Source: Phoronis australis
Lineage: Eukaryota; Animalia; Phoronida
Assembly: GCA_002633005.1 (NCBI GenBank)
Contig: NMRA01000364.1
Coordinates: 393,853-457,852 of the forward strand
Length of the DNA stretch: 64,000 nucleotides
Direction: 5' to 3'
Positions 2,235 to 64,000 of this stretch are shown here, in pieces; the stretch's first letter is position 1, and each line of letters begins with the position of its first letter. Under the pieces are notes generated by a model that saw nothing but the letters and a program-made list of their open reading frames with translations, was not told the DNA's origin and did no database searches. A program made the position numbers and the translations under genes.

Positions 2235-2913
2235 ATGCAACTAACCTGGTCTGCTATAAACCCACCGACGAGAAGTTGTAGCACCATTGATTATTTTCTT
2301 GCCGAGACATCGTTGTTCGAGTACATTCAAGATTTTAAAGTATTGCAATGTTATTTATTGTTGCATTTTCCTTTTATCTGTACCGTCACTACCCCTGCAA
2401 AATTATGTCAGAAAGTTACTGGTGAACCTTATATAGTATTGCAAAAACGAGTAAGATATAGATGGCCTAATGAGAAAGGTGTATTTTTAGAAAAATTACA
2501 AAGCCAGGAAGGAAACGACAAGTGTCGAGAAATTATGAGCTGTGTTGATATTCACATAAATGAGAGTGTTAAAGGAATAGTAGATTTGCTCCAGTCATGT
2601 GGAGCGGGCATGTACGTGAGGCAAGACAGGTGTGTAAGTAAACCCCGTAGACCTGCATGGTTTGACAGTGAATGTAAAGAGATGCAACTACAAAAGAAGC
2701 ATCTACTGCGAAAATTTAGAGTGTCTCGGAGTGACTTAGACCTGAGAAATTATCTTTCTAGTAGAAATGAGAACAAAAAGTTATGCAAGAAGACGAAAAC
2801 GCTATACTATACCGATAAACAAAGTGAGCTTTGTGAGTCAGTGGGCAATCCTAATAGATTTTGGAATATTATAAAACAAAGCTTGTCAGAGCGAGTACAC
2901 ACTACAAAGACTG

Positions 2914-2955
<42 letters not shown>

Positions 2956-5544: not shown

Positions 5545-8500
5545 TTATTTCTTTTCAGAAAGGGGTAGAAATAGGTTCTGATCAATGTAGTACGATGATT
5601 GATTTTCTGTGTTCCCTGATTCCGGCAACAAAGTGCTTTGATCTTCCTGTGCGTTATGGTCAAAGTTATCGGTTGATTCAGGAGAATTTGATGTTGTTGG
5701 CGAATCCAACAGGTTGGTATGCTCCTCTGGCGTCACTCGACTACCGTGGTAGTCAGACCGTGTGCCGTTCTGGGCTTCCAATCCAGAGAAAGGTTTGTCC
5801 GGCTCTTCCACAGTCCCATCAGCGGCAACAGGGTCACACAGTTGTTCGTTGTCAGTTAGCTCAGGAAGCTTTACTTCGTTAACAACCAAATTCTTGTCGT
5901 CTGAAACGAAGGACTCGGTGTTTTAGTTTTCTCAGTGGATTCAGTAACGTAATTTACAAACTGGGCGTTAGGTTATAATGAAGATGCTTATCTTTGTTAA
6001 TACGAATGACAATCAATTTGTGTCATTTATGTAACTATATATTGGAATTTGACACCATGCAGCTCTTTGAACAGCAAGCAGTCGCCACGTGCACTATCAA
6101 GCCGTGTCTAATGGTCACCGAAATACTATTGCGCGTGACGCAGTATCGAAGTTGTTCGACCCTGTTGAAAATTTACTCACCGTCTGCACGGACAGCATGA
6201 TTGTTGATATCGTTACCAGGGAGGACAGGATTTTGTAATCGAGTGGCTTGCGGAGTTAAAGACGACGGCTCCATATGACTTTTCAGACTTGTCAAGGAAT
6301 CTTCGCTTCGTCTTCTCTTTCTATTTCGTTCACCTAGAAGACAATAAAAGTTGGGTTCTAGTTCCTTGAAACGGACAATCAGAACTTTCTACTGAACTAA
6401 ACAACTTACAACAAACTGCATAAAATTATCTTACATAGGTACCATGCCCACGCTTAGTTCTTTCTTTTTGCACTCCAAATAGTTTTATAATTTAATTTCA
6501 TTTTCATTCTTTCTTTTTTCATCTGAGTATATTATAAGATTAAACAGCGAAAATGCATCATCATCATCGTCGTCGTCGTCGTCGTCGTCCTCATCATCAT
6601 CCTCAGTTGTTTCCATTAGTGAGAGCCCAATTCCTTGAAAATGACTTGATGCTGACACGATTATTAGGCCGGAAAACGTGCGTATTTAAGGTTTGGCATT
6701 GCTTCACGAATAAAAAATAATTACAGAAAAAGAACCGATGGAGTGTTCAAAACAACTTACCCTTCTCTTTTCTGTCTTTACAACAAAGTACGCAGTTGAT
6801 GATTAGGCTAATAAGGAATAAACTACCGAAGGACGCCGCAACAGCCCACGGATAGTTTTGTGCTTGTGGCGCACCAGGTGGCGGACGAATAGTTGTCGGC
6901 CACATGCCTGTGTAACAAGACAATGTGGTTTGTATCAAATCAAACGTTAACATAAGCAACATTCGAGACATCACATGATCTTGCGCTGTCACAAATCAAA
7001 GTGCCAATTCTTTTTAGCACCTGGCCAGTGAAGTTCGACAAACCTTCCTTTCTTTCTGCATGACGTCGATTTCTATAAACTATAAATTCCCTTCTTAAAC
7101 ACTTCAGTCAAAACCTGAGTTCAATGCAGCGCATAATGTCAAGTTAACTCGTTTAAGTCATTAACTTCAGGGTGTTCCATCGAACATTAAAGTGGAACAC
7201 ACAGGGTAAACGAAATAGAGGCAGACCACGAATGACCTGGAGACGTTGCATCACCGATGACATGGAGAGGTTAGGATACTCATGGAGACAGCTAGAAGGA
7301 ATCGCCCAGAACAGAACAAAATGTAAATCTCTGATTCGTGACTTTTTCCCTGGTAGGGGTGACGGGCATTGATTGATTGTTCCATCGAAACAGGAAACCC
7401 GGAGTGCGTTCAGTAACGCTAGGACCTACGCTAGGACCTAGCTAAAATCTAGCCAAAGTCACGTGATCTCATTTAAAATACACGACAATGCCTCACGTAA
7501 ATTCACGAAATCTTGCTTTTTAGCGAGGTCCTGGCGTTACTGAACGGGAGGCCGGTGTGAAACAGATATCCCGGACTCGAAAACAAATTCCCGCACCTTC
7601 AAAACAGCTAACCAGTTCAAAAACAGGAACCTGACCCCGGCCTTTAAAACAGGAACCCCGCCGGATCGGACAGGAAACTAGAATAATTTTTCAAATTTTC
7701 TGAGACCACGTAACTTATATTACATTGATTTTGTTATTAGATTTTTATCGGTAAAACTCGTGCAACGTGTCTGTGGGCGAATTTCAACATAATCTGTGCT
7801 CTCAACACGTTATCTCGGTAAACATTTAGTTAAGTTCAGATTACCGGTACTCAATAGTTTCTCCCTAAGTATTTTCAAAACTGAAAACCAAATATTTAGA
7901 CGTTCGAGTGCTATTGTTAATTAACTTGTTGTGACATGTACGTAACCTCGTTGAAGAAAACAGTTGATTGAAGAATTGGTGACCCAATTTTATGGGCCTA
8001 AAAGCCGACGCAAAAGATCGCATCGCAACTTTAGCAGCAGAATAACATAGAATGCCCATTCGTCACTACTTGCCTGAAATTAAAGGGTACTCTTTTACCG
8101 GAGTCTGCTTTCGACTCTGGGATATCTGTTTTACATCGGGGTTCCTATTTCGATGGAACACCATGAATTTAACATTGTAAAATCTGTCTGAAAGATAACC
8201 AATGACTTATTTCCTGTGATGAAAAACTTTGAAAAAAGCTGCAGATTTCATTACATTTCTTCGCCGAGCCCTATGGACACCCGCATTTTAAGATTCTCAA
8301 ATAAAAATCTGCAAACGTGTCACTAAATAGTCCGATAAGTTACATTCCTTGAAACATTTTCATTAGGTTTTAAAACAGCATCAGCTGCTTGGGATAAATT
8401 TAAACGGGATTGGTTTTGCGTCAAACTTCTTTTATCACTTGTTTAACTGAAAATAAACATAACGCGTATCTAGCCAAAATCGAATTAATAAAAATTTATG

Positions 8501-25600: not shown

Positions 25601-28600
25601 TACTTTGATGGGTTTATTTTCACAATTCACTTTCACCATTGTCACTATTACAGTTATTCTTTGGGAGTTACGACGTGGGATTAGAGAAAATAAAATAAAA
25701 TAAAATAGAATAAATATAACACATCCCTACATTAGTGAGTAAACACAAGGAGACAAATAAGTCGAAGTAATTTAGTTAAATTCTTAAATTCTCCAAAGGA
25801 ATAATAGCGCTAAATTTTAATGAACAAATTTAAAGTAGCACTTACTTGGTTAGTTTACTATTATGATTGCACAGTTCTTTTACTCGCTCCAGGTTTCCAG
25901 ATTTTGCTGCTTCGTGGACATTGGGTCCACGCATAATTTTCAGCTCTTCATCTTCTTCCGCTTCTGATTGGTCGGTTCTGGAATCGATCTCTTGTTGCGC
26001 CTGAGCTTTCTTGGCAGCAGCTAACCCAGCCTAAAGTACACAGAAAGTGATGATGTAATCAAAAGAAGTTGATGAGGAAATTCACTTAATATGCATTGTC
26101 ATGGAGTTACATTTGCATATTGCATTAGTCATGTAATTACATTTGAGCAAAACAGCATGGCAAAAAATGTTTTTAATTGGATGGTGGACTTCTTATACAG
26201 GCAAAAAGTCAATCAAAGTTTATGAGGGAATATTTTCAACACATGAAATTTATTTCATAGATATCGCACACTAAAACCAATGAGGAATGCAAAAAAGCCA
26301 GAATGCTTGTCAAGTCTTGAAATCTTCTAAAGCTGAAGAAAGCTTTGTCATAATAGCAAGGAAATTAAGCAAAAAGTGCCCGTGTGTGAAGCATTTTGTG
26401 TTGGAAGCAGGGTTGCTAAGTGGGACATCTGCACTTGGTGTTCGTCAAAAGCTACAGAACCAAAAGTTCAAACAGATATAAGTTAACTTGTTTTATTCTC
26501 GAAGGTAAATGTCATGCTTTGTGCTCCAGGTAATATTTCATACCTGTACACAGCAATATTTGAAACCATAATCAAGTGATGACTGATTTAAAAACACAGA
26601 AATGTGAATGAACAAGGGTCAAAATATGTTTATACTTTACTTTAACTATATACTATGAGCACACTAACTGATAATCAGAGTGTCCGTAATTTCCACTAAA
26701 ATATAAACTGGCAGGCAACAAAAATCATAAATCATAAAATGATACAGAGCATCACACAGGCATTACACACTACCTCTTCATCCTCAAAGTGAACCTTTTT
26801 CTGAAATTTTCACCAAGACATAGACTTAAAAAGTATTGCCAAAAAAGTATCTATACTTCAGAAAGGCAGCACAGCGAATATCACACGGTGGGTAATTGGT
26901 ATCAGGGCAAAAGATTTTCATCATCTACACTTCAATAGTGACGCAAACAAAAATAGCATATTAAAGTTATCAGATGTGGCAAAAAATGACCAATCGTAAT
27001 CCTTAAACGCATTCACTAAGTCCCATGTTAGTGCAAAGTCAAGCTGTAGTTCAAACTTCAAACTGGAAAAAGTAAGTTCACATGCAATCGATGTACTCTA
27101 TTCAACTCGCGTTGTTATCATGCGTACATATGATTAACTGTCAAAGGCAAAGTAGTTCTCAACCATGGTGCTGCATTTGGCTTAACTCAAGTTCAAAGTC
27201 TCTGACTCATCACTTCATGTAACCAATACACGAAAATTGCTGGGTGCTTTTTAAATAAAACTTACCAGAAACCCAGACATGTAATCGTCCTTCTTTAGAC
27301 TGCCAGAGTCAGACAATTTGCCATCTCCCTCAGAATCTGACACAGCTGGTTTTTGTTCTTGTTCAGAATCCGACTTGCCCCTTTCATTTTCCGAGTCCGA
27401 AGTGGCGCGCAGGATACCCTTCTTTTTCTCTGGCACTTCAGGATTATCTATTATCGCTGTTTCTCCTTCAGTCTCTGAGTCGCTCGGTGCTGCCTCACTT
27501 TCACTAGCATCAGATTTCACAGAGAACTGTGGTTTGTCTGAGTCAAATTCTGATTTGTCATCTGACTTCTCATCTGATTGTTTATCTTCCCGCTCGCCTT
27601 TATTGTGCAAAAAACTGACATCTTTCTCAACAGGCTTACTATTGAAAAAGTCATCCTCATTTTTTGCTGACTCAGCCTCTGAAGCATTGTCTTTGACCTC
27701 AACCTCGTATTTTTTCTCAGGTTCATCAACACTTCGATGAGAAGTGCTCCGACTAGTACTCAAATCCGTATCCGTTTCTGTGTCGGTGACGGTATCCGAT
27801 TCCCGACTTTTGTCCTCGGTCACTGATTTTTTCTCGTCCGCACGGTAACTGTCATTACCCTGTAGGCTGGTGTTCACTGACTCGTTGCCTTGTGACCTAG
27901 CAGTGGATGGTGCTGACCGCGGTGTCATTGAAGCTGAAGTGGCAGTACTGGTGGTGCTACGAGCAGACGACATTGAAGTTGAGCTCCTGGGACTGTCGAG
28001 CTTATTGCCAGGCTTCGCCTCTTCACTTGCAGCGGGTGATGCACTCCGTGCGGTGCTACTGTCGCCATCTGTTAGGCAAAAAGAAAAGTTTCTAATTTAC
28101 CACAGCATTTACGATAACAATTAATACATATCTCTCTCAGTGTGCATATGTTAATCAGAGCATTATACACGATTTTAGAAAGGCGAGATTATAGAATGCT
28201 TCAGCAGGTTTTAGCTAAACTTCAAGATTCAAATACGAAACAATTTTTTAAAAAATTGTGTAAATGTATCCAACAACTAAGCCCACAAATAGGTATCTTG
28301 TATTATTTAATACGTTAGACTCAGGGAGAAGTCTTGCATAAAATTCTCCCATGTGACAAACTTCCAAGTCGTTTACAGAAATATACCAATTGAATGGAGA
28401 ATCAAGATTTCAATCTACACTTTATCTTATCAACCACTCATTACACATACCTGATGCGATATTCCTTTGTGTAACTGGCTTAAGTTCTCTCATAGTTATG
28501 CCTTCCCCTTCTCGAGCAGACAACCATTTGTCGCAAGGAAACTCGTAGCTTTGCCGCAAGATAGGGTCTCGAACAGTCACGCTTCCCAAAAACCAGCCGG

Positions 28601-31600
28601 ATCCTGAAAGCAATTGATGACTGATTGCCTCATATTCAACAGACGTAAAGATTACAGATAAGAGTAAAATACGTCGCTGCATACACAAATAGCCACAACC
28701 ATGCTGATAGTACTTTACATTTTACTATGTTTCAATCAGCATTGATGGCTCAATTAGATACATTTAGTAAACTCTGCGCATGTGTTCATTCAAAGAAACA
28801 AAACTCATCCCACGCCATTAACAGCCACGTTGCATCAGATGGGCACACTGAGTAAACATTCGGGTCTGCCCCTGTAACATCATGTAATTGCACATTAAAT
28901 TAAAGGGACATCATTAGTGAGAAAAGTCGTTTTTTGAGACAAGTCATAACATGGAATAAAGCTTACAATATCAGCGGCGAGTGCTACACCCCAGGATGCA
29001 TGGCAGGTTAATTTTGTTTTTAATCGGTGAAAGTCGCCAGCCTCAATTTCAGCAAAATGACTGGCAGAAAATGGCAAATATTGGCAGTTTATAATGAAAT
29101 CAGAAAACTCTGACTACAGATTTTGTAGTTTCGTTGCTCTGGCCAAAGTTAATGACTAAAAAATGAAGTTTATCTCATCCAACTCAAAAAAGCATTTTTC
29201 AGTCACAGTACAAGCCTCTTAGGGACCGTTCACTAATCGCTGTATGCACGAGTGTACAAAACACCCACTTAATGCGATGCCCCTCCAGATAGAAAAAAGC
29301 ATACATTAAAAAGCAATCCAAAAGCCCCTCCCACACATTAAAGCAAATAATTTTTGTAAAAAAAAATGTTTTCATAGAATGAGAAATTAAGGACTTCAGT
29401 TATATATCCAGTCAGATTTCGAAGCAGCCATGACAGATGAAATTTAAAAAATAACACAAGCCACAACACTCACCTATCTCTGTTCTGTGGTGGCCTATTT
29501 TGATTTTGTCCAGCTTCCCAAGATGATAGAACGTAACCATGAAGGTGTCCTTTTGTCCTTTCTGGAATTTGACTTTGTGATTCTTTGATGTGAGCAGCGG
29601 GAGTTCTGGAGAGCGGCCTCGTTCACCATACAGGATAAGGAAGATGTCTGCTTTGGTACTGGCACCAATACGCGTCCCTGTGCGAACTATGACCTTATAG
29701 GTCACCTCTTGACCGTCAGCCACAACTGTCTCCGACTGAAAAGGGAAAAATCGACCACGTCATGCACAATGGAGTTGCACCCCTGTGAATATTTTTATTG
29801 GATAAATAAATTATTCAGGGTCCATATCGTGCAGATGCAAAATATTGTCAATACTTGATCAGGAGATAGCTGCTATAATTGTTGAAACTTAAAGCGGTAT
29901 TTCATTGTTGTTTAACTGTCAATGTAGCATTCTTAACCAAAGTGCTTTGGGGTTTAAAAACATTATCACACTCATCGGATCTTCAGTTGTTGCTGAATGG
30001 GCCATCAACTAAAGTCACAGGCAATTAAAATGCATTCATGCCCATTTCTGAATTTTAGGGTTGACCGCCCATCAATCTTTTTTTGAGTCGCTGATGGTTT
30101 CGATATTCTAATTAATCACAGAAGTAAGACTCCTATCACAGTAACGTATATTACAAGGCTAATTTTATGAGTGGCGAAAAACCTAGTCCAATTTTTATTT
30201 TTTAGCCAGCTAAACAAGACAAAGTTCAACTTTATAGCTACTAATATCCACAGGTTCAGAGTCACTGGGATCAAACAAAACCTTACATGGTCATATTGTA
30301 GCAGCAGCTCCCTGCCTGTCTGACACCCCGTGTCCTCAACCAATGGGATATCCTCATCGGTCATCAATTCTTGGTCACCAGCCTCATCACCTACACCAAG
30401 AGATTATCATTAGGACATTTAAGCAGCCAAAAGGTTAAGACACATTGTGTGAGAAGCTCGGAATTCACTATGTTGCAATAGACAAAATTTGTTGGACAAA
30501 CAAACAACAATGTTCATGATTAATAATCTTCATCTCATCAGTATTTGCTCAAGCTCTCTGTATCTTTTTCAGTAATTCGCAGCACGTCAATAAAGCAGAC
30601 GGCATAAGAAAGCTAATGATTAAAATGACAGCTGCTATAAATCGAGACTGTTCTTGTCTCATCCTCTGGCAAAAATAAAATGACACAGGGTTACTAATCA
30701 TGAAAAATCGTTGCGTGTTCAACAAATTTTTTCTATGGGAAGGGATGCTGCCAAATTATTGCAACAGCGCAATAATCAAGTCAAGAAGAATAATTCCATG
30801 GATTCTGGTGGCAGGGATCTTGAACGCTGTCATCAAGGTGAAAGGGTTTCTGCTCAGAAAATAAGACCAAAGAGCACAGTTGATTCCCGGCCGATTCCCT
30901 GGTTCTAGTCTCAAACCAGCTTCAGTGGTGGAGTGATGTGATATTGTTGAGAGAGGGTGACCAAAAGAAGTATGGTTTCAAAATAAGTTGAGACACAGAC
31001 CAGAACCAGCTATGCTTTCTTTAAACTAATAACAAGAGGTTGTTTCTCCATTAACACAACCTAAAGAATATTGTATAACATAGCATAACAGGCAAGCTAT
31101 GCTACTATTGACATCACATTCAACATTGCAAAGAATTACGATACGACCCCAGTTTTAGCTTGAAATAGGAGTTGGGTTAAACTGAGATTCTTCACAATAA
31201 TTTCTTGATACACTCTCAAAGACGACACTGTCATTTTTTGACAAATCAAAGGGAGATCATAAAGTTTGAATTTAGACAGCCATTGTGAATTGAATAACAC
31301 AATGTTTAAAAAGACACCAGTAGACTATAGCCACAGCATTACCCATGCTATGAATGGTCCAAATGAATTTCATATTTTCATTACTAGCTGCAAAGCGGCA
31401 GGATTCAATGATGACATAGGACCAGTACTAGTCCCAATTAACTTTTATGCATCATACATAATCGAAAAGGTGAAATTATAAATGGAAAATGGGAACTAAT
31501 TCCTGTCCAACTTGCCTGAAGAGAGATCTACATCCTGCCTAGGGATCCACTTGCGTCTGGTTGTCTGTGACCTGGGGGGTTTTGACGACCATGGCCGCAC

Positions 31601-34600
31601 GTTGGCACGCTTTTCGTTGCCACCAGTCTCATTGTCACTAGCATCACTGAAATCATTGAAGTTTTTGGGCTGGTCCAGTCTTGGCTCTGGCATTGCCCTG
31701 GGGGTCCCTAAGTCAACGTCGTCACCCACATAGTAGTCACGTGGCGATGGGTCAGCCGACACCCCGTTCATGCTGGGGGTGCCTACTCCGTTCATCCCGG
31801 GGGTGCCTGCCCCGTTCATCCCTGGGGTACCTGCCCCACTCATGCTTGGGGTGCCTACATCGCGATTGTGATCAACACTCATAGGGGGAGTGCAAACTAA
31901 AGGTCCATCACCATAACCCGAGCGAGCTTGGTAACCCGGATGTGGTCCAATACTGGACGCTGCTCCTACACTAGATGGCGCTTTGCTTCCACGAACGCTA
32001 GGCGCTTTGACACTTCCTGGACCCTTAGTAGAATGGGCAGCACTTCTAGGTGTATTATTTTGTGACACACTTCGAGGGGAGTTGCCCTGAGCCAGACTGC
32101 GAGGAGTCGGCGATTCATCGCTCTTCATGGATCGAACGCCAGGAGTGGGCGTTCCGTGTGGTCTGACCCAGTTGTTGTGCAGTTTGCGCTCCTCACTTGA
32201 GTCAACTTTTTGCATCTGTTCCCTGAAATTATTAGGCAAAACACATATGTAACAACAGGAGTCTAAGAGTGAAATACTAAATTGTAGATAAGTCTCTCAA
32301 GACAAAATGAAATCAAACATAAATTTTCAAAGCACAAATACACATGGCTTGGTCCAAGAGGCACTGTCAGTGGAAGGGTTGGCACTGGACTTGGTTATAG
32401 CATTTAAAACTGATAAAAAAATGAAAACAACGTTGTAAAATTTTTAAATGTATCAACCTTACATAGTTACTTGTCTGACAGTCTTACGATATATTTTCTA
32501 TCATACAAATCCTCACCAAATCTGCAACATAATCACTTATTACAGATTACGCTTGAGTGTTATCAGCAATTATATTCAGTCAAATATCTACAAAGTCCTA
32601 GGATTAATTCGGCCGGAAGAAAGTAAACATTTTTCAAAAGCAGAAAGCCTCCAGAACTTGAATTTTGACTTCACAGAATGTGCCATTAATTTGGTCATGT
32701 GGCCATGTCTTTTTAGTAAAGTTTAACGAAAAAAAGATGCATTATATAGAAACATCAGCATCAATAAAATGACCAAATTTTGTTTCATAAAAATGTTCAA
32801 GATGAAATTTCAAAAATGCTATAACATTTCAAAAAATCTTCATTTCGTTTTAGCTTCATGTAGGTTTAGATTTTTTGCATAAAAGTAATGGAAATCCTAA
32901 TTTTTGAGGTCCCTCATGCAAAATTGGAAATTTTTAAAAAAATAGACTAACAGCATTTTGGAAAACATTGCATAAAGCCCAGTATCCGAAAGTTTCATAT
33001 GAATCTAATCGGTTATTTCTGAGAAGCCATGTTTCAATCTTAGCCAAATTGTGGGATGCTACAAAATCTTAAAGTACAACCCAGCAAGTTGAAATATAGT
33101 CCACCGTTAACTTTCACAGCGTGCAAGCACTCGTGCTCACGTACCTTAGCCAATGAGGTATGTTTGCTTGATCTTGTTCTGGGGCCACATTTCTCGGTGA
33201 GCTGCCATTCTGTTTGTGCTCATCAGCCGAGTTGTCGTTGGATACATAAGCACTGTCGTCACGGCGCTGAGCTAAGTAAGTGTCATCAAACGACTGAAAT
33301 TGTGAAAGACCACGTCACACTCTTCTGGTGGCACGTGACAATTTCGGTTTCTGCTTCATATTAATAATCCACTTTCCACGTTATAATTATGCTTTTGAAA
33401 TTTTTGATTGTCGAAACACAGCATCTGAACTCACAGAAATCTACATTTTACTTATTGAAAAGAGATACCAGACCAACAAATGAGACTGAATTATTTTATT
33501 CAACATGAAAAGTTGCAGCCAAAGAAACAATTTCTTGTCATGATCTTTGCATTAACTGTTCATTCACTTCATATCTAGCCTGATCGTCTCTTCTTGTGGA
33601 ATTCCTACTATCTTTTCACTTAAACCTACTTTCTGCTCATTTTTAAAACCTTAAAAGGTCCAATGTATCCCATTTGGTAATTTTGATATCAAAACAATAA
33701 CTTTGGAATTAAGATGAATATTTACTAATATAAAATGGATTTCTAGGAAAAATAATGAATTATTGTTGGAGACTGAAGAAAAGGGGTTAAAATTAACCGG
33801 TTGGTCATAATATGTTGAAAGGAATATGTCTGCCAATGGTTGGTCATAATGTGTTGAAAGGAATATGGCTGTCAATAGTTGATCATAATGTATTGAAAGG
33901 AATATGGTTGTCAATGGTTGGTCAAATTGTGTTGAAAGGAATATGGCTGTCAGTGATACCACAACTGCACACTAGATGGAATCACTATATACTGGTCAGG
34001 GACAATTTAAGTTTTATACCAAACAAAAAGAATGCTTGGCATGCTCTCAAAACAAAAATAGTTCAGAAGGTATGAGTAAAAACTCTTATTTCAACTCTAT
34101 AAGAATATAGAGTAAATATATGAAATATCATAAGATGAACATATATATGCAACAGGGGATCAAGCCACAATTATGTGAACAAAGACAATGAAAAGGACAA
34201 GCTGTTAGTACTGAGTCATAAAAACATGTGATTGGGGTAGACCAAGACATTAAGGTTGTTGTAAGGACAAATTTTAAGAGTTTGAAATTAAAGCAACTTA
34301 AGGCCAACACTTTTTAAATTGTGCATGAACGTGCAAGAAATGAGCGGTTACTAGTAAACTGAGTGTTTTTTCAGATGCTTACTCCATACTCAGTGTCCGA
34401 GTACAAACTGACGATTTAGGACAACTGAGCTAGAAAAGCCTTTCGCAAAACTCTGCGTGGCAAATGACATCTGCACCACAATCACATGTTATTTTCTTGA
34501 CCTTGCAGCTGTTAGTACTAAGGGACATGACAGGGGCATTTCTATTACTTACATCCTTTGGGGGCAATTCTGCGGATATCATCTAGAATTGTAGTGAATA

Positions 34601-52600: not shown

Positions 52601-53668
52601 TGAATTCAGACCCTGGATTCAACTGGTAGCGGTCATCAACTGCGAAAATATATTTATTTTGTCTAAGATGGCCAGGATACGTTGAACGACCTTGCGTTGT
52701 ATTGTGTTTGACAGTTTACTTTGGACGTCTTCCCAATTGACAAGGTTCTGTGTGATTATGGCCTTCACAGGGTTATAATTAAACAGGCCATACGTTAGTC
52801 TTGAACATTGAACCACTTAGTTGATCGCGCGACGTGGCTGAACCGGCAGAAATTGCAAAGGCGCAAACTGCAAGACACGACATATAAGCAGAATGGAAAG
52901 TGACAAGTCAGCGTATCCGTTTTCGCCCTTTTTTATGAAAAAAATTAGAAACGTGTTTCTTGTCTAGGCCTGGATAAATTCCGTTTTCGGCAGTTTTTAG
53001 TATTTTTCGAACGAAAGTCTATAATCGTCGCTTACCGATGTTCCACATTTTGAGGACAAGTTTTATCCAATGAATAATGGGCATCAAATGAAACTGGTTC
53101 TGAACATCCGGGACCCCTGCCGAGTGACTAAAGCCCTAAAAGCCGCGTTTCGTGAACGGAAACTGTATAAGTTATGACATCGAAAGATTCAGAACACGTC
53201 TATATTCAGTTGGCAAGGGGATAGTGAGGATAGTTTACAACATTTCATGATGTGTTTTTTTCACATAGCCACCGAGTTCTGCTTTTGTAGGCCCACTTAC
53301 TTGTGAGAAACACTTATCAGTTGAGTTCCCTGATGCGGAGGTACAGCATTGAATGAATAATCAAAAGGTACTTGATTGGTTGATATAACAATGAGATGTG
53401 ATTAAAAGTAATTTATTTACATTCTATGTACATGTTGTTCTGTATGAAAACAACTACAGCATACAAGAGGGTGATCCTTTGCATGTTGCAGACAGAATTC
53501 TGTGCCCGAATTCCAAGAACAAAAAGGTATCTTCTTTGATTTATTTACAAAAATGCTACCTGGCTCAAACTGCTTCGCAGCACCATCATGAGTGTCTCAT
53601 ATTAAATTAAATAGTTCTCGTATTTACAATATATACAGTCAATATTTATCCGGACTACTTATATTTCA

Positions 53669-56600
53669 CTATGCAACAGTAGAATCGTTTTCCAAACTTT
53701 CCCGCCTGTATTGCTGTTGCCAACGATTTATTTCTCGAGTTTCAATAGTAGCTGCGTAGCAACACTTGTGAAATTCATGCGCATAGCGATTATGCACACA
53801 GTGACGGAAGGTGTTCATTAATCCGCGACCGTAATTCGCGATGCGGCGGCGACCGTACATAGGCAGGCGTCGGTTATGGGAGCGATTGTAGTTCCTTCTG
53901 GTTACACGGGCGGCATAGAGTCGCGCGTGACAGTGGAATCCTTTGTTTCCGGCCAGTTTACCCAGCATGCAACAAGACCAATGTTCTCGAGGTACATCTG
54001 TAAATGAAGATAAAATGTTATATTTCATACCACTTTAGCATTATGTTTGAAAAATGAGACCCAGCTTCATCATGTTAACACACGTGCGTTATAAATTAAG
54101 TCTGTCCGAACTTTTAAAGGTACTTACAAACCCGCATTCTGTCAGAAACTATTTTTTTATTTTTTAACACTTGTCGTTAGAAATTAACTTCAAATAGACT
54201 ATTTCCGAGATCAAAGGCGCCGGATTAAGATTTCCCGGGGCCCTGAGCTACAAGAAACCTAGGCCCTGAATATCTGAGGTGATCTGCAGGCACCTCTTGC
54301 CGTCAACTGCTTCATCCGCCCCTCCCCCTAAACAATCACTTCTAACCCGGCAACTGACATTGAGCAGGCAAATTATAGACACACCTCTGAAATATTGCAG
54401 CAGATCAGGGGTGGATGACTCTGGTCTGTTGGTGTTATTCCCGTGGTGTCCACTTCCTGTTTCTGACGAGTCTGCTGGGTCGCGCGTGGGGGGAGGAACG
54501 CCGGGGTTCAGACGAGCTGGAGGCAGTCTAAGCCGATTTAAATTCACTGTCGACAGAGCACCCACGAGATAGTCTGTAAGAACGAAACGTACAAAGAATG
54601 AGTGATAATAATTGCTAGGGCCTACCTCATGAAACGGCAGGTATGTTATTTCCATTGTGATGTTTACCGTTGCCTAACCTGGTGAGTCGAGTTGTGTTCA
54701 TCGGTTGTTTCTCTCTTGCGTTCTTTAGTGTAATACTACAAACATGGCCATGTTTACCTTTCATCACGTAAATGTTACTCGGCTAAACAACGTACGACTG
54801 TTGATTCCACCAACACTCATTCAGCTATAACTAACTTACGGGTCTCCTGAGGACAAGGTCCATGCATTCATAGGGAGACCAAGTGAAACAAAACAGTGTT
54901 AATTGGCGAATTAGGAGCTATATTAACAGCAACAAAAATACAGAAAAATAGGTTATCATTTAAAAATCTCTAACTGCTTTCATATTTTATCAACTTGTTT
55001 ATTCACTGAATGAAAATCGTGTTATGAATTAAATCTTATCGAGCTATTTAAGTTTGTCCCACAGTAAAGATCGGGTAGAATTTCTTATGCATTGCTTTTA
55101 TACTGAAATTGCAAGTTTATGATATATTTTACAACTGTGTGTATTTTAATTTTGAAATTCAAACACCCGCACGACGGACCACGTCATTCTGCATGATGCC
55201 GGACTCCCGAAATGTAGCAGATTATGTTATTTGGCTCAGTCTCTTCGGCATTATCACACCGAGCAAAATCAGACAATCAGAAGGAATTACGTCACCCCAG
55301 AGTGTTTACGATTTTATACCATTCGCGTTGAATCTGTCGAGGGAAATATGGCCATGTAATAAAGTTTTCCACTAATCACCTCCCGCACTACTTCAACAGT
55401 GACCTCTGACAGGGAAAGTTCAAAACGTAGGTCAATGTCGACTCGACGTCGTTAGCCGGTTGGATCACCAAACTTTCGGAAAATAGTTTAAAGTAATACA
55501 GTTAAAGCGGAGTAAATAACGCTCAACATAGACTCAGGTCTCAATCGTAACATCTGGAACAGGACTGTTAATTATATGACAGTTCTGTCTCAGTTTTCAT
55601 TCGCTAAATATTTTATCGTCTCAGTGCAACTAAGGCGCCACTGAATTCCTGGTGACTACAATATCAAATATTGTTGTTATTTAACTATTTTCAGGAGATG
55701 AAATAAGTTCAATGAAAAGTTACCCTTGTTTTCACCTTTGTTATCTCTTTTCAAGTAATAAATCGTCGCATTTAAATCTGTTACTTTGACTACAGAACAC
55801 TTGCAGCCTAACGCGCAAGTATAGGATGTGATACGCCACGTGAACAGCCTGGGTGAAAAATTTAAGAAACTTAGGAATTCGAAGCGTATGGGATAAGTAC
55901 AAAACGATTGGCGTACATGAAGTAATATCTTACGAGACTTTATTACGCGTATCGACCGAGACCGCCGGGTTCAGGCGTCATTTTTACGGTCACGGTTAGG
56001 CATGAATTCATGTGATATCGCTTCCTTCTTGCTTGCTGCATGAACTTACATTACCTGTATGTAAGTCCATGCTTAGAGTGATAATGCCGAACCCAACAGG
56101 CAACAGGGGGTCTGGCGTCAAGCGGCGACCGGAGCCCACCTTGTGGTTCATAACGATCGCAGTATCTCATGTAGCGCCACCTATGGTCATCTAATGAACA
56201 AATGCGTGGAGACATTTATTTTTAATATGCAAATACAGAGGATTACGGCGAATGCAAACAATTTGAGACATCTAATTTCACACGCGTTTTCGTAGCGTTC
56301 GTCTTAGGTAACATTTCACTTTTCAGGTACATTTTGATTTGCACTCTTAGATCGTAAAACGGAACAAAAAGCGATTACAGCCAGTGAGTTCGTACTTTAC
56401 GATATGACCCGTCATCTCCACAGATAAGAGTTTTGAGTTTACGATAAACCGTTACTCTGGGCGAAGTGACTGACACTGAAACGAAAGATTTACGAGGCTT
56501 CGGGAATGTAACGTCAAAATCTGAAGAACACGGTTTCACATGAACATCATCGCCATCACTATAACTATAGCGGTAAAGAATGAACTCTAAAATTGCCGTT

Positions 56601-58736
56601 TTCCGTGCTATGCAGCACAAGCGTTTGTACGAGACGTCCGGACTTGGCGGCGCACATACACCGTCACCCTCGACAAGGTCGCATTTATTCGGTGGAGTGC
56701 ATTTAAATGCCACTTCGTGCTGAAACACTTTTTTTTTTCAACTTGGTACCGCATGCTTTCGCGTTTTCAATTACCGCGTAAATGTCCCTAACGAAATTCC
56801 ACTTGACCCCTCTCATAAGAACTAAAGGTGGAAACAAAAGAAACCTAACCATCAAAAATCTGGGACCCCGTCGCTGGTTTGTAACGCTTGAATTCCATAC
56901 AAGATAAGGTCTATATGTCGGCATCGTTAAGTGACAGTTTGACACGCAGCTAAACCCGGACCCAGAAGTGAACTATTAACTGATTGCTTTTTTAAATTGA
57001 GATTGTTTATGGCTTTGCTTTTGCCAACTTCGCGGTGGCTGAATTTATTACGAACGAGCGAAAATGGATTCAGTGACGTTTTGGGACTGCAAGTCATAGC
57101 AATGAAAATCTTTGCAGACGCTATCAGTCAGCATTACCTGCATTTTGTTCGTCGCAGTTTGAGTGGTCTCGAGATGGTTTCAAGAATTTGATCTCAAAAA
57201 AATTACATAATGCACTTGAGTGTCGAATGATAAACTTGTTTTGCGTGAACAGCGACGTGTTTACTTGGAAAAGTGAGACTAGAGTGACACTAACACTGAT
57301 TCGTAGTCACTTGCAGCGAGGAACAATAGCATGTTGGTTCTTATACCTGGTGAACACACCATTTTGTACTACTTGAGTTTCGTTTCCATTACAGACAATT
57401 CCACAAGGACATTTTACGTACGATTCTTCAATCGAGATACGCACATGTTAGTCTTGTTGGTAAAGAAATCTTGGTCAAGAACCAATGTTATTGACGACTG
57501 AATAATGATTGCATAGGCGGATCGGGGGGGGGGGGGGTCAAGGAGGTCCAGNTCGGTTTTAGTGATATCAAATCTAGAATTTTCAAATTGTTGACTTGGA
57601 CTCCTCTTTAAAAATCCTTGATCCGACCCCCCTTTTAAAAAATCCTAGATCCGCCCTTCAATTGACGAGGAAAAACCAATGGTCTATGCGATAAGAGACA
57701 CATAGCCTGTGAAATTCCGCGCACAACACAGACTGACATCGTAGTGTATCGGTCATTGTCGTTCTTACAAAACGTCACCAGCCCCTAAATCGATGGCTAG
57801 AACAAAGGCGGTTTCGTTCCAGGTTTTCAGTCTCCGTGGTTTCGCAATGACGGTTTAAAAACACATCGTACGTCATTCACTCTTACTCAACGTGTTGTTG
57901 CGACTCCGCGTTATATTTACACAAGATTAGGTGCAAATGAAGCATTGGATTTCCCTTTCACTGTCAAGCTCTTTGACTTCCTTTGAAACTATTGTTCTCT
58001 GTCCTTTACTAATGCAAGCTTAATCCTCTCTAGATTACGATGGGACCTTTGTGACCGCGATTACCCGTGATAAAGCAAACTCTAGTTGCTCCATTTCAGC
58101 TGCAGGAATAAATATCAAAATTTACTCAACCACCTGCTAGTGCTGGGTGATATCGCGCATCAAACTTCAAACTGTGCGTTGTATTCTGGTTGATTGGTCA
58201 TTTCTAGCACCAATAGTGTGAACGTAAACAAAACTGCTTACGAGATGTCTATTCTTTTAATCACGTTGACGACCACATTCGTCTGAAAAGTTTACATGAA
58301 CAGTAATTCATATTGATAGGATCCAAATACTGATTACAGGCAGTGTTCACGAAAATTCAAAATTGCCCGTTTTCCTTGTCACATGGAAATTTCTACTATT
58401 TTCTAGTCTCGTCATTAGCGTATGTGCAACTTTATAATGGACAAAATCCGTGGTCATGCGTCTTCGTGGTTACGAACTTTTCGGTAAGATTCTCCAGGAC
58501 GTTTTCCATATTTATCGAAAGACAAAACGACGTCACTGTATTCTGCCTGTAGAGGGTAAATTTTGACTTTTACATTTATTTCCCGACGAAAAGCTAAGTC
58601 ACTTACCATCAAAGTGTTGATAGCGCACTTCTCTTACACGTCTCCGATTCACCACAGCATATCCACAGTGGACAATAAGCAAAACAGCAGCAGTGTATTT
58701 GATAAATTTCCTACAGTACACAAAAATTTTCTCCAT
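53669..58736 (-). CDS. Secreted anaphylatoxin(ANATO)-like cationic protein 1, about 215 aa, 3 exons
   Basis: Exons 58736-58607 (MEKIFVYCRKFIKYTAAVLLIVHCGYA signal-like, then RRRVR), 54573-54385 (Pro/Ser-rich), 53997-53669; all phase 1 GT-AG, total 648 nt. Domain CCMLGKLAGNKGFHC-x43-CVHNRYAHEFHKCC; AATAAA at 53412-53417. Linkage of exon 1 is the least certain part. Confidence 0.7.
57512..57659. mobile_element. GGCGGATC-type MITE with poly-G tract (contains one ambiguous base, N at 57552)
   Basis: CATAGGCGGATC ... GATCCGCCCTT inverted ends; same family as 12684-12845. Confidence 0.6.
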
Positions 58737-61112
58737 GGTCAAAGACTAATTTCTTGAAGCTTGTCGGGTCAAGTCGGTCTCCAGTTGGTGTGTATTTACG
58801 CTAGCACGTGCGTGGGTCATTTAATAACATTCAGCGATAATCTCAGAAAGGGGATTGGACAATCCAGTCGAAAGAGTGACGTAGACCGACCAATCGTGTC
58901 GCTTATTCTGTGGTGGTACGATACTCCTCATAGTTCGTAGTATTCGAGGAATGCTCTGTGCGAGGTTATGTTTACAAAACATTACCACGTGTGATAGTTC
59001 AATGGGAAGTTATTTAGGGAGTAAAAAGAAAGTAATTAAAGGGGGGGGGTATCTGACTGGAAATTTAAAAAAAATGATGAGTTTACAAAATTACAACAAC
59101 TAGTAACCCCTTGAATGCTTCCCAGACAAAGGAGAGGTCTATAATTGTCCCAGAGCTACCGATATTCGAACTTTGTTTTGTTGAAAAATATTTTCTGTCT
59201 ATAAAGTGAGAGGAAATGAAAACGATCGTTTTGTTTAGAATAAATTGACGTAAAACTCTAGGGTTTGTTCATTTCACACGTGATTTTCAAAATGAGACTA
59301 AAATATTGTGCTGTGGTTGACTGGCGCTCGGTGTCATCTTCTCTGTCTGTCACCAGGACTGACCTGTGTTAGGAGTTACTGACCTGAACATCGTGTGATA
59401 TTCTGGTACAGATCAGATGATGATCATATAAGTAGTGCAATTATCGCAACGCCAGTCTGGGGAATGTAAACAAAATAACTATCTCCGTACTCCAACCGGA
59501 CAACCCTGGTTTATATAATTAAATTTGCAGAAGACGAATATTTTTTTAACGAAGTGTTGTGTTTTGGTTGAGTGAACCCCGGAAACACTAACACAAAAAA
59601 ACGAATGATTAAGTACTCATAGAAAGTTATGCTGTATGGCCACCCTGCTCATCAATCGTACGACAACCCTATCTAACCAATGAGAGCTTCCGAACGATCT
59701 TATGATTCATTAATTGATGAAACAAGAAGTCGTTAAGTATTAGCGTCATTGAATACAGACAGGAAGAATAATTCACTCGAAAGTATCTAAGGGCATCGTA
59801 ACCGTTACGCTTGCGAGATTTGTTTACGTCAGTCACCGGTACATTGTGTGAACAATAATCATAAAAGTATATTATCATTCTGTATCCACAACAATGCAAT
59901 AATTCACAGAGTTACAACTGTTACAAAACAATATAACACAAGGCATTAGAAATAACCGGCCGCGTAACACCAACAAACCGAACTGCGAATTTAATTGTCT
60001 TGGTATATATGAATATGTAGATCTTTTTAAACCGGCGTGCAGAAAAGACTCAAAGAATGTTTGCGATAACTCGACTTTCCGCACCGCACTTGTCCGACAC
60101 GATGGGATATGCCGTACACCGCAAACTTGGTTCTTATCAAGATTTCACAAGCTTTAGAAATTCCCGAAGTTAAGGACATTATCGGGTTTACGGCCGAAAT
60201 ACACATTTTTGTGGACAATTTTCGGATAGGATAGACTGCATGGAGTTCTTAACTTTGACTAGAGCTGTGAAACGACGGCTGTCTTTTGCGATTTCAATTC
60301 TAAATCCTAATTCTTGGCGTTGTCTGTCAAACATCCGGTGAAATCAAAGCCGGTCACTTTCCCAGTTAAAATACGCTTGTAGTGCATTTCTCGTGTGGGT
60401 CTTAGCTCCGTGAGCAGCAGTGCTGTAGTGGGGCGTAGGCGCACGTAAGCGCAGCCAACCACCTTTTGGCATTTGAACGTAGCGCCTACGCACCGTAAGT
60501 TACGTTCAGTGCTCAAGGTGATACGATGGGCTTTGGGCGCCTATTTACCTCTAATTTTACCACTACACCACTGTCCAGCAGAGCGTTTGGATGCAGCGAC
60601 TGCGGAGATGGCAGGTTTGATGCCGTTGCAGTCGAACTCATAAAATCACTATTCTCCCCGATAATGTCACTTCGACAAACTCTTACGACTGAAAAATAAT
60701 GGAACTAAAGTTGTAATTAAACTGACAAAAATCAAATATTTTTGATAGGTGTTACATGACCTGACTTTGACGGAGTCCAGGATACTTTCTCAAAAATCAA
60801 GTCGAGATCACCTGAGCAAATTTACGCCGTTAACAAAATAATACACGAACGTCGTCAAATGAACCGAAACGTAATTTTGCTTTGCTGTGAAGCGTATTTT
60901 TTGTTTGATCTATGATTCAAAATTAGTTTTAAAAGGTTATATTGGATCTTTGGTTTAACTCAAATATTTCAGTTAACAACTGGATGTAGAGAACTACCTG
61001 TACGATTAGTTTGGTCTATGCAGACCTGTGTATACATAAAGTCCATTTTAGGGCACCCAGATATTTGATTTCTGAGGAGTATTTCAGAGACAACAAGTGT
61101 GGCAACTAGTGT

Positions 61113-63321
61113 TTAGTTATATTTTTGTCGTGTCACTTTCTTGCACCTTTTCCTCTGGAATCGTCTTTCGCCTTTATTTCCATGAACACGCAACCGTCTG
61201 CAGTCATTCATTTCTTTTTCGAACGCCGCTCTAAAATGGCAACATTTTTCAAAATATTTTGAGTAACGTAGGCCACATTTCGCCAATTTCGTCACCATTT
61301 TTAAAACAAAAATGTCTTTGTCTGGATCCACCATCTTCAAATGCGCTTTGTGGATTACGTTTCTGTTCTTCGCTACCATGTGAACATCGACAGTACACGC
61401 CATTTTCTTGCGGGCGGCTTTTTCACCCAATTTGCAACATTTTCGCGAAGTTGGTCTAAACTCCCGCTTGATTTTTGATTTTTCCACCCTTTGCCTGGCC
61501 AATCTTGCTTTCTCGCGTTGCTTTTCCATGAGGCGTTTCCAACTCGAATCCCTTACCCACGAGCTTTGTGGAACCGGCTTAACGCATTCTGAAAAAGACC
61601 CAAAGAAACGAACTACAGTAAACATGCGAAATTCAGTTGAATATCTTTTTAACAGTGAGCAAAAATATTCAGCGAACGGTTACTTGTGAGAAAAAGACAA
61701 AAAGTGTTATTTAATCAGTCAACGGAGATGACGATTATCAATATTTCAAATGATTTTGAGATGAACTTTCTAATTCGTAACGATTTTGTAGGAAAAGTGT
61801 CGAGCTGTCTTTCAGAAATATAAACAAAAACAACACAGCCAGCCATAAGTGTTTCCCTCTGTATAAATAAAAGTGCATTTCCTGGCCGTATGTGTTTGTT
61901 TTCACAGGAAGAATTGAACTCATTCTGGGGACATTAATGTACTGGAGAAAAGCGCATTTCCAGGTGCCAACTTCATCTTAGCTTCATCTAACAGGTGTTT
62001 AACGGCGAAGTTCTTGAAATCATAATAGACTCCCTGTAGCGCAGTTTGTCAACAAAATGTACCACAGTACGAAACTGAAATCGAAATCTGAATAAATTCC
62101 GTGCATCTCTGTAGGTTAGTGACAATAGAGTGCACAAGTCGTTCGTAGTCATATCCCTCTGTTTCGACCGTGATAAAACAATAGACCCAAACACTTTTCC
62201 TAAGTTTCATAAGAAAAGAAATGGTCTACTTTGGCATTGAACCAAATGTTCAAGTACCATACTCCGAGGTACTATTTCTTTGTTTCCATAAAGCAGCGAA
62301 CATACAAAGGAATGGAGGAGTTTATAATCCTGGTTCTTGGCCGAAATCGTTTATTGCATAATTTTGATTTATTTTTAGACCTAATGGATGCTGCAGGCTT
62401 TTGACCACCATATTTAATATGTTCCAGGAAGACGTTGCCAAGGCCTACTAATAACAAATTCCATTGGATTTTATGTAAACATAAGAACTGTTTTTCCTAA
62501 AATTATATTGCCACTGGCTCGCCTTCGCGGTGAGTTCAACACAAGCAATTTGTTTATTGCAAAACGCGGGTATTGTCTATTGCATATTTGCACTCGTCGG
62601 TGCGCAAGACGAGTTACCATCTGTTTTATCTCCTAAATTATAGAAAAAGTATAAGCATCTAGGGTTGGCCGATTACACTTGAAAATATGAGTTGGGGCTT
62701 ATATGTTGTAACCCTTTTCAAACAATGAAAGACAACACTTCAGACGGCGCCCCGCTGGCTCGGAATCTTCATTGTTGAATCTACGGCGTACCTGGGAATT
62801 TGAGGTGCAAAGCGCCGGGAAGGATTAGAGCTGACGTTACCTTTATTGCACATGAAGAACACCCACGAAGATTAAAGGCTTGTAAAAGCATTCCGCGTAA
62901 AGTATACTAATTGATCATTTAATAAATTAGCAACCTTTGCACTTCCAAAAGCTTCATAGGCTGTTGTAATTTGTGGCACATTAAGTTCTCTGAGACTGAA
63001 TCCCACCTTGGTGTGCCTAGCAGTATATATTAGATAGATTCTGTTCATTTATTGTCAAGTATGATGCAGTAAGGTTTGCAACGTCTGTTCGACATGTACA
63101 ACACTACGCAAACTAGTTCACAACATTTTTGTGAAAGAAGCTTCATCCCAGCTTGTGCTGAGCCATTCAAGTCGATTATAACCCCACCTGAGCACAGATC
63201 TCTGTACACGTGGCCTCTAAATGATCAAGGGAGTTTTTAATTGCAGAACCTCAAAAGTTCACTCACCTATTATGTAAATAACGCACAACAGCACAAAAAC
63301 TATCAGCAAAATCTTGTTCAT
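61113..63321 (-). CDS. Secreted anaphylatoxin(ANATO)-like cationic protein 2, 176 aa, 2 exons
   Basis: Exon 63321-63267 gives a textbook signal peptide MNKILLIVFVLLCVIYII, spliced in phase 1 (G|GTGAGT ... TTTTTCAG|AA) to 61588-61113; total 531 nt. Basic pro-segment ending KIKR, then CCKLGEKAARKKMAC-x39-CGLRYSKYFEKCC and a basic tail with two extra Cys. Confidence 0.85.
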
Positions 63322-63952
63322 GATGACTATCGGAAGGCAATGAAAGAGAGCCTGGTCACATGATCTCCAGTTTCAGTTGCATACTTCACGCAATCAGCTG
63401 TTGCCTTTTTCTCCCGGGTCCTTGAAGTACTCAGATACATTTTCAATGCCCTGGTTAGCTAAACAAGCCATTCATCAGTTGTTTGCAGGTCCAATAAAAG
63501 CGTCATCGAATACACGCCAATCACTGACACCGCGAATTCTGCAAGTCAAACCAGCCAATAGCTGACATCGCAGCGGCATTGCTTTGCAGCACATTTCCAC
63601 ACTTCTTGGGATGTTTTCGATCCCTGGTACACGAAAAATAACAAAGACCTTAGGCTACATGCCAGGGTCCGTATGACGTGCCTTGCCTAACAGGACTGCC
63701 TGCGGGTACTATTCCTGGAGGACTTTCGACTGTATTTTTGGCCGCAGAGTGCGGCTGGAAAATTAGGATACCCACCCAACGTTAGACAGTGGTCCTTCAC
63801 TGAAAAATGGAGTTCCCACGAAAATGTCACCCTTTCGTAGAGTTTTAGTAGAGCATTTTGCTTGGGGTTCACTCCATAACTTAACCTCAAACTACTCAGT
63901 AGTTTAAGCAGTGCTTAAACTTCCATAGCCCCCGGCTAGAGATTCATGGACA

Positions 63953-64000
63953 CAGTGGCGGATCTAGGCGGATATCACAAGGGGGGGGGCCCAATATTTT
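63953..64000 (+). mobile_element. Start of another CAGTGGCGGATCT-type MITE, cut by the window end
   Basis: CAGTGGCGGATCTAGG followed by a G-run, like the elements at 12684 and 57512. Confidence 0.5.

Follow-up and report, generated by a model that had tools for sequence, protein, structure and literature searches.

Two neighbouring Phoronis australis genes belong to an apparently undescribed bilaterian family of predicted-secreted, anaphylatoxin-like cysteine-rich proteins

In a 64,000-nucleotide stretch of the genome of the phoronid Phoronis australis (contig NMRA01000364.1, positions 393,853 to 457,852; hereafter the window), two neighbouring minus-strand genes, here called A and B, are both spliced and both transcribed, and each encodes a small protein with a cysteine-rich domain that partly resembles the anaphylatoxin (ANATO) module. 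A and B represent an unnamed, apparently undescribed, bilaterian-wide family of predicted-secreted proteins. From the observed gene structure, transcription, family range and cysteine conservation, together with a predicted signal peptide and a predicted helical fold, we infer how such proteins might work, and we tentatively favour, at a little under even confidence, the reading that A and B are paralogues, each with its own transcript, from an old bilaterian family of predicted-secreted, predicted-helical, cysteine-rich proteins, which likely arose from a fibulin-type ANATO module and likely act as free-standing, cytokine- or hormone-like receptor ligands tethered by basic residues to sulfated glycans.

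Results

Genes A and B are spliced, stand-alone transcription units

A six-frame scan of the window found the frame CC-x2-G-x9-C...C...F-x2-CC twice, with no occurrence in 200 triplet shuffles. An initial annotation, made from the letters of the window, had described a pair of genes sharing the framework CC-x2-G-x9-C-x(39/43)-C-x(10/11)-CC, and both frames were recovered on the minus strand and confirmed by RNA. The RNA evidence comprised reads of three raw runs with the same species label, ~18–19% of each being sampled, and contigs of a fourth run. All three introns (two in A, one in B) are GT–AG and were supported in 3/3 raw runs and in the fourth-run contigs, and first mates mapped solely to the plus strand, consistent with minus-strand RNA.

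Gene A has three exons and encodes 215 amino acids. Exon 1 (58607–58783), with stranded read cover, contains the 5′ untranslated region (UTR), the ATG at 58736, the predicted signal peptide, an RRR site and the start of an RY-x-x-F-x-DYL motif; an in-frame stop lies four codons 5′ of the ATG, and molecule ends accumulate at 58783 in run X4. Exon 2 (54385–54573; 189 nt, phase 1-1, open frame) encodes a Pro/Ser/Gly-rich spacer between motifs common to annelid orthologues and resembled in relatives P0003, P0007 and P0011. Its joints, 58607>54573 (17/10/63 reads) and 54385>53997 (23/12/63 reads), end CT..AC on the plus strand. Exon 3 (53467–53997, also the span of an X1 contig piece; 3′ end approximate) encodes the six-cysteine domain, a C-terminal helix, the stop codon (53669–53671) and the 3′ UTR. 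An AG stands at the corresponding phase-1 position ahead of the domain in 21/21 related loci, although it is possibly coding in the transcript-like L003 and in L004. The RY-x-x-F-x-DYL motif spans the exon 1/2 junction (58607–58630 and 54550–54573) just past the predicted signal peptide. A proteins of annelids and the horseshoe crab retain it although the spacer that follows is variable, and it could be a second functional peptide.

Gene B has two exons and encodes 176 amino acids. Exon 1 (63267–63375, where an X1 contig ends) contains the 5′ UTR, the ATG at 63321, again with an in-frame stop upstream, and the predicted signal peptide; no read cover was found over 63457–64000 at 97% likeness. 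The joint 63267>61588 (13/7/65 reads) leads to exon 2 (59900–61588; 3′ end approximate), which encodes a basic pro-segment, an eight-cysteine domain and the stop codon (61113–61115), followed by a long 3′ UTR with a dispersed repeat; stranded cover of this exon runs from bin 59828–60018 through 61588.

In both genes a stop codon directly follows the domain. No joint between A and B, or to an outside exon, was seen among the joints shown (three minor joints lay outside these, and those for 58300–64000 consisted of the B intron only). With upstream in-frame stops, post-domain stops and no outside joints among those shown, the genes stand free of any fibulin- or C3-like transcript, as the initial annotation had proposed, and transcripts with their own ATG and stop agree with its suggestion of production without a complement convertase. 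A and B both peak in the same RNA run. The window and the reads differ at 10 coding positions (five synonymous, five not). Apart from A and B, the best score in the window was E 0.05, and no further paralogue was identified there.

Dispersed repeats at 55340–55960, 57557–57613, 60418–60573 and 63952–63987 carry unstranded read pile-ups with many loose ends; the element at 55.3–56.0 kb shows opposite-strand joints, and the 60.4-kb repeat sits within the 3′ UTR of gene B. A cysteine-containing open reading frame at 60307–60540, which overlaps this repeat, was rejected as a gene.

Predicted properties of the two proteins

The A core (53974–53759) reads CC-x2-G-x9-C-x43-C-x11-CC, with a near-invariant insert loop, N-x-N-R-A/S-H-N-R ... 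F/Y-x-G. In the B core (61143–61439), CC-x2-G-x9-C-x39-C-x10-CC (61439–61239) is followed by C-x18-C on a predicted helical hairpin (Cys7, Cys8), so that B is an eight-cysteine protein with two extra conserved cysteines past the last CC. The cores share the C-terminal motif RY-x3-F-x-K-CC, and the proteins end in Ala (A) and Asn (B).

Several details of the initial annotation were amended. Signal peptides, called by hydropathy only, were strong in B (window mean 3.8) but weaker in A (2.3). Basic cleavage-like sites are present as di- or tribasic sites (A, RRR 31–33; B, KR 36–37 and 59–60), but R-x-K/R-R is found in neither protein, and Arg31 of A is Gln in all three raw RNA runs. The Arg/Lys-rich insert of ~30 residues carries a marked positive charge in A (net +12, with 12 K/R of 43) but just a mild one in B (net +4, with 8 K/R of 39). 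Core charges are +15 (A) and +10 (B), and mature-protein net charges +16 and +33.

Structure prediction gave a confident B core (mean pLDDT 85.9, pTM 0.71, insert loop low) with six helices (7–19, 26–35, 37–43, 48–67, 69–90 and 98–115), and a moderately confident A core (P0001; mean pLDDT 69.5, loop <50) with helices 3–18, 24–38, 55–68 and 72–107. The expected helical character was seen in both models; Cys4 and Cys5–6 lie on different predicted helices.

The family spans Bilateria

Searching with the A domain exon identified seven relatives among nine candidates (57–66% identity), including one from Ridgeia, and a Lamellibrachia A-type member was identified via cluster look-up. Among proteins of 332–2000 amino acids, the A profile matched one of 7994 scored, a 370-amino-acid Tachypleus protein with a long Ser/Thr repeat spacer and no EGF domain (weak evidence on the question of a fibulin-type architecture; the B search was limited to ≤597 amino acids). 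A-type sequences made up 21 of 161 metagenome pattern matches. The B search returned 49 cluster representatives at E ≤0.001 among 1.84 billion, and the B profile gave 17 matches among 5543 candidates, 13 of them new.

A-type proteins occur in annelids and a horseshoe crab, and B-type proteins in molluscs, annelids, chelicerates, echinoderms, hemichordates and amphioxus. The names looked up for 20 of the 49 B representatives, many of which carry none, included Potamilus, Nucella, Lottia, Pomacea, Lymnaea, Owenia, Pycnogonum, Tachypleus and Limulus, as well as Diadema, Antedon, Anneissia, Amphiura, Patiria, Saccoglossus, Ptychodera and Branchiostoma. The names looked up included none from insects, nematodes, cnidarians or vertebrates, which does not in itself show absence. 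The named B-type records are labelled uncharacterised, hypothetical or unnamed, except for 'Small G protein signaling modulator 3' on two Branchiostoma records, a label that we rejected: the protein has 176 amino acids and no Pfam family, and its sister records are uncharacterised. Weak Pfam matches (DNA_primase_S, DarP, CNOT1, Cmc1 and others) were below cut-offs and scattered, and were dismissed.

Alignment of the A and B profiles over 80 columns (probability 97.3, E 2.4e-11) indicates that the two are homologous, deep paralogues. A tree of 72 cores separated 12 A-type from 60 B-type sequences at 100/100 (114 columns, bootstrap not settled; six fragments of 78 left out). Because A and B are homologous, the tree splits the types and Tachypleus has both, the duplication is likely older than the annelid–chelicerate split. 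The Tachypleus genes lie on different scaffolds, which differ in length, so linkage of A and B is not universal; no B-type gene adjoined A in 21 metagenome loci of 1.1–13.8 kb, most of them too short to tell.

All 72 full-frame proteins (B-type 127–341, A-type 107–370 amino acids) consist of one domain behind a variable spacer, and the N-terminus is hydrophobic wherever the record is complete. Glu-rich pro-segments occur in B proteins of echinoderms and hemichordates. Cores are 65% identical between A and its Ridgeia relative, 54% between A and the horseshoe crab protein, and 64% between Saccoglossus and Diadema B proteins.

We found no published description of the family in full-text searches judged by title and abstract start, which covered few subscription journals and could have missed another name. 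Family motifs were absent from the searched supplements of PMC3374290, PMC4342343 (without files 13–17), PMC10448888, PMC11940790 and PMC5627052, and the accessible portions of PMC13365339, PMC2119879, PMC11957666 and PMC4342343 hold nothing on it. The family looks undescribed, as the initial annotation had suggested, with a range much wider than the window alone could indicate.

A conserved cysteine framework with a conserved insert

All six cysteines, in the order CC-C-C-CC, are present in A, B and 69/72 full-frame proteins; Gly stands third after CC in 71/72 rows, and 66/72 have a Phe three positions ahead of the final CC. Rows had been selected with an x12 Cys2–Cys3 spacing and a Cys3–Cys4 spacing of at least 20; the latter is 43 in A, 39 in B and 28–51 across the family. 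The Cys4–Cys5 spacing is x11 in A and x10 in B, 9–12 in proteins and 10–23 in the 21 loci; the A-type members L005–L021 have this linker stretched to 13–23 residues, with the rest of the domain conserved. At least two further cysteines follow the last CC in 57/60 B-type rows but none in the 12 A-type rows; among 50 aligned rows, 98% have Cys7 and 94% have Cys8. A stop lies within 90 codons of the domain in 20/21 loci, L015 ending with its contig.

The A insert loop is as conserved as the A cysteines, its invariant residues in the A-type alignment being Tyr, Arg, Asn, Asn, Arg, Arg, Gly, Met and Phe. An N-x2-H-x2-K/R-x-x-F-like motif was found in 11/12 A-type and 21/60 B-type rows, and deuterostome B proteins have a related stretch, N-x2-H...K-M-x-F-x-G. 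Core charge is positive in 71/72 rows and varies between −2 and +21, whereas particular Asn, His, Phe and Gly residues do not change. The insert, to judge by its sequence, is more than a plain basic linker.

The domain is ANATO-like and probably ANATO-derived

C3a has the frame CC-x2-G-x9-C-x12-C-x6-CC with F-x2-CC, the Gly being typical of ANATO domains. In A and B, Cys2–Cys3 is x12, as in fibulin-2 modules 1 and 3 (C436–C449 and C512–C525, both x12; PMC11220139). When the first 15 core residues were compared by eye with module 3 of a fibulin-like entry in the Platynereis secretome, 8/15 were identical in A, 7/15 in B and 9/15 in P0005 (five letters belong to the search motif). The nearest resemblance seen is to a fibulin third module, not to C3a. 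In three of the 72 rows (P0025, P0030 and P0065), Cys2 and Cys5 are jointly lost, and neither is lost singly in any row, which fits the ANATO pairing with its 2–5 bond.

Other results weigh against such a descent. In fibulin-2, the Cys3–Cys4 link is 9–12 (modules 1 and 3) and Cys4–Cys5 is 6 (PMC11220139), versus 28–51 and 9–23 in this family. The three partner cysteines of C3a and C5a lie on one helix (PMC11220139), whereas Cys4 and Cys5–6 are on separate helices in the A and B models alike. PF01821 gave no match among the families listed for the proteins scanned (25 of 28 weak families in one listing; HMMER filters drop most above E 0.1), and sequence comparison at E 10 brought up no anaphylatoxin or fibulin chain in the PDB. 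The three rows with Cys2/Cys5 co-loss form one clade and count as one single event. The C3a/C5a fold assigned in the initial annotation is accordingly not established, and the Pfam check that it proposed listed no match. Because motifs and co-loss speak for a relationship while spacings, helices and the lack of a Pfam match speak against it, we regard the family as ANATO-like, probably derived from ANATO, but not a member.

A different origin, to be kept apart from the functional alternatives below, is convergence: an independent helical disulfide family in which CC-x2-G and F-x2-CC are one good way to staple two helices. We consider this possible though not probable. It would account for the two of three spacings unlike ANATO, for separate predicted helices with a linker that tolerates up to 23 residues, and for the lack of sequence-profile support, but it sits less easily with six cysteines in the same order, the exact x12 first spacing with Gly, the Cys2/Cys5 co-loss and the residues other than cysteine that the family has in common with the annelid fibulin-like module.

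Discussion

If A and B are receptor ligands, the protein would be secreted, and cleavage at basic sites may shorten its variable N-terminal spacer. Disulfides Cys1–4, 2–5 and 3–6, plus 7–8 in B, would tie the CC helix to the helices at the C-terminus; the ~30-residue Cys3–Cys4 insert, with Asn, His, Arg, Phe and Gly near-invariant in A, may form the exposed receptor-binding surface; and the basic surface could retain the protein on sulfated glycans close to its source. Such a protein would not have to be freed from a large precursor by a convertase-like enzyme. We favour a ligand because of the layout of the precursor, with a signal, a disposable spacer and a compact disulfide domain, the 54–65% core identity across phyla or classes and the conserved exposed loop. 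On the other side, conservation is equally compatible with a matrix partner as with a receptor, window B lacks the insert motif in the form searched, and basic sites are not fixed in position, any RxxR, KR or RR occurring before the domain in 52/79 rows; these points count against our interpretation.

The strongest functional rival, though an unlikely one, is a role in the extracellular matrix or in mucus, in which a freed fibulin-type module would form oligomers and cross-link matrix proteins or sulfated glycans without signalling. The closest visible motif is that of fibulin module 3, the ANATO region of fibulin-2 mediates dimerisation (PMC11220139), mature A and B have a strong basic charge (+16, +33), and the Tachypleus A protein has its Ser/Thr repeat spacer. 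However, the rows seen have no EGF, collagen or other matrix domain; in narrow tests, the model number of the Lottia member was not found in 12 supplements of a Lottia shell proteome, nor were family motifs in two mucus/spine secretome supplements.

More doubtful still is a cationic antimicrobial or innate effector, silenced by an acidic pro-segment and active once trimmed. C3a is antimicrobial, and the near-universal positive core charge (71/72 rows; A +15, B +10) and the Glu-rich pro-segments of echinoderm and hemichordate B proteins agree with such a role. Antimicrobial families, however, are usually fast-evolving and expanded, whereas these cores are 54–65% identical across phyla or classes with only two copies in the 64-kb window, and their charge varies (−2 to +21) while Asn, His, Phe and Gly are fixed. 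Slow evolution and the invariant insert loop thus lead us to prefer a ligand over an antimicrobial. The initial annotation had offered both, and its cytokine half appears plausible while slow evolution disfavours the other.

A C3aR-like mode via a C-terminal Arg tail is unlikely: because there is no convertase precursor and C3a-like tails are found in 0/84 rows (none LGLAR-type, five ending in Arg), the C3a mechanism is not transferable.

A more speculative scenario, which we think improbable as a whole, is that a fibulin-type ANATO module was freed before the protostome–deuterostome split, acquired a conserved loop for receptor binding and gave rise to two stand-alone cytokines or hormones, surviving in lophotrochozoans, chelicerates, ambulacrarians and amphioxus and perhaps lost in the main model animals. 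Anaphylatoxin-scaffold signalling would then have arisen a second time, independently of a convertase, with A and B possibly acting together; an A:B complex prediction, run without alignments, was uninformative on this point (score 0.07, mark 0.34).

To our knowledge, few secreted families that are conserved across bilaterians lack a name, a domain model and a paper, and this one can be studied in the tractable hosts Platynereis, Lymnaea, Patiria and amphioxus. If ANATO-derived, it would represent stand-alone use of a module otherwise known within complement C3/C4/C5 and fibulins, and bear on the rise of C3a-type signalling scaffolds; if a ligand, it would be a candidate for orphan invertebrate receptors; and if convergent, it would still be an unmodelled helical disulfide family fit for a new domain definition.

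Other features of the window

On the minus strand, ~15750–15490 and 15050–14740 likely form a small tumour necrosis factor (TNF) receptor-like gene with a hydrophobic leader, one Cys-rich module, a Thr-rich stalk and a transmembrane stretch; the module scores under cut-off for PF00020 (E 0.068) and PF09257 (E 0.09), and we take the gene to resemble BCMA- or Grindelwald-type receptors. A multi-exon minus-strand gene at ~5500–44500 contains a PLAT/LH2 domain (PF01477, E 1.9e-10; exon 29415–29759), and long acidic Ser-rich exons (27254–28096, 31499–32296 and 5548–5922) putatively belong to it. Frameshifted reverse-transcriptase-like frames on the plus strand (2211–4928) look by eye like a LINE-type remnant.

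Comparison with known systems

The ANATO modules of fibulin-1/2, especially module 3, share with A and B the CC-x12-C start, the Gly three after CC and the CC-C-C-CC order, and are all-helical and extracellular, as is predicted for A and B; the B model, like them, has no C3a-type first helix, and the co-loss is consistent with a 2–5 bond. Fibulins, however, place three modules before EGF repeats, the full plan being ANATO, then calcium-binding EGF, then a C-terminal domain, whereas the A/B domain is single and stand-alone, with stops following it in A, B and 20/21 loci. It also has ~30 extra conserved residues between Cys3 and Cys4, a Cys4–Cys5 stretch of 9–23 instead of 6 lying on two predicted helices, the extra Cys7–Cys8 hairpin in B, and no listed Pfam match.

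With C3a, C4a and C5a, the family shares a cationic, helical, predicted three-disulfide frame of the same order and the F-x2-CC motif. A and B differ in being encoded by their own genes with their own predicted signal peptides and not cut from a thioester protein, in their spacings, and in having no Leu-x-Leu-Ala-Arg-type tail (0/84). According to PMC10518620, the terminal Arg of C5a matters for binding to C5aR1, raising affinity 10- to 100-fold.

A and B resemble serum albumin, ECM1 and Endo16 as predicted helical, secreted proteins with an adjacent CC and a further Cys ~10–12 residues on; in those proteins, CC-x7-12-C units are repeated. Here there are no tandem domains and no Pfam or PDB sequence match, and the cysteine-loss pattern speaks against albumin-type pairing: Cys5 has been lost where Cys7 is retained, and A has Cys5 but no Cys7. 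Finally, GPA2/GPB5 and bursicon are paralogous secreted cystine-rich hormone pairs built as beta-strand cystine knots. The likeness is one of analogy only, without homology: both cases involve two ancient paralogous secreted genes, and A and B are adjacent and highest in the same RNA run, but a heterodimer of the two is hypothetical, and in Tachypleus A and B lie on different scaffolds.

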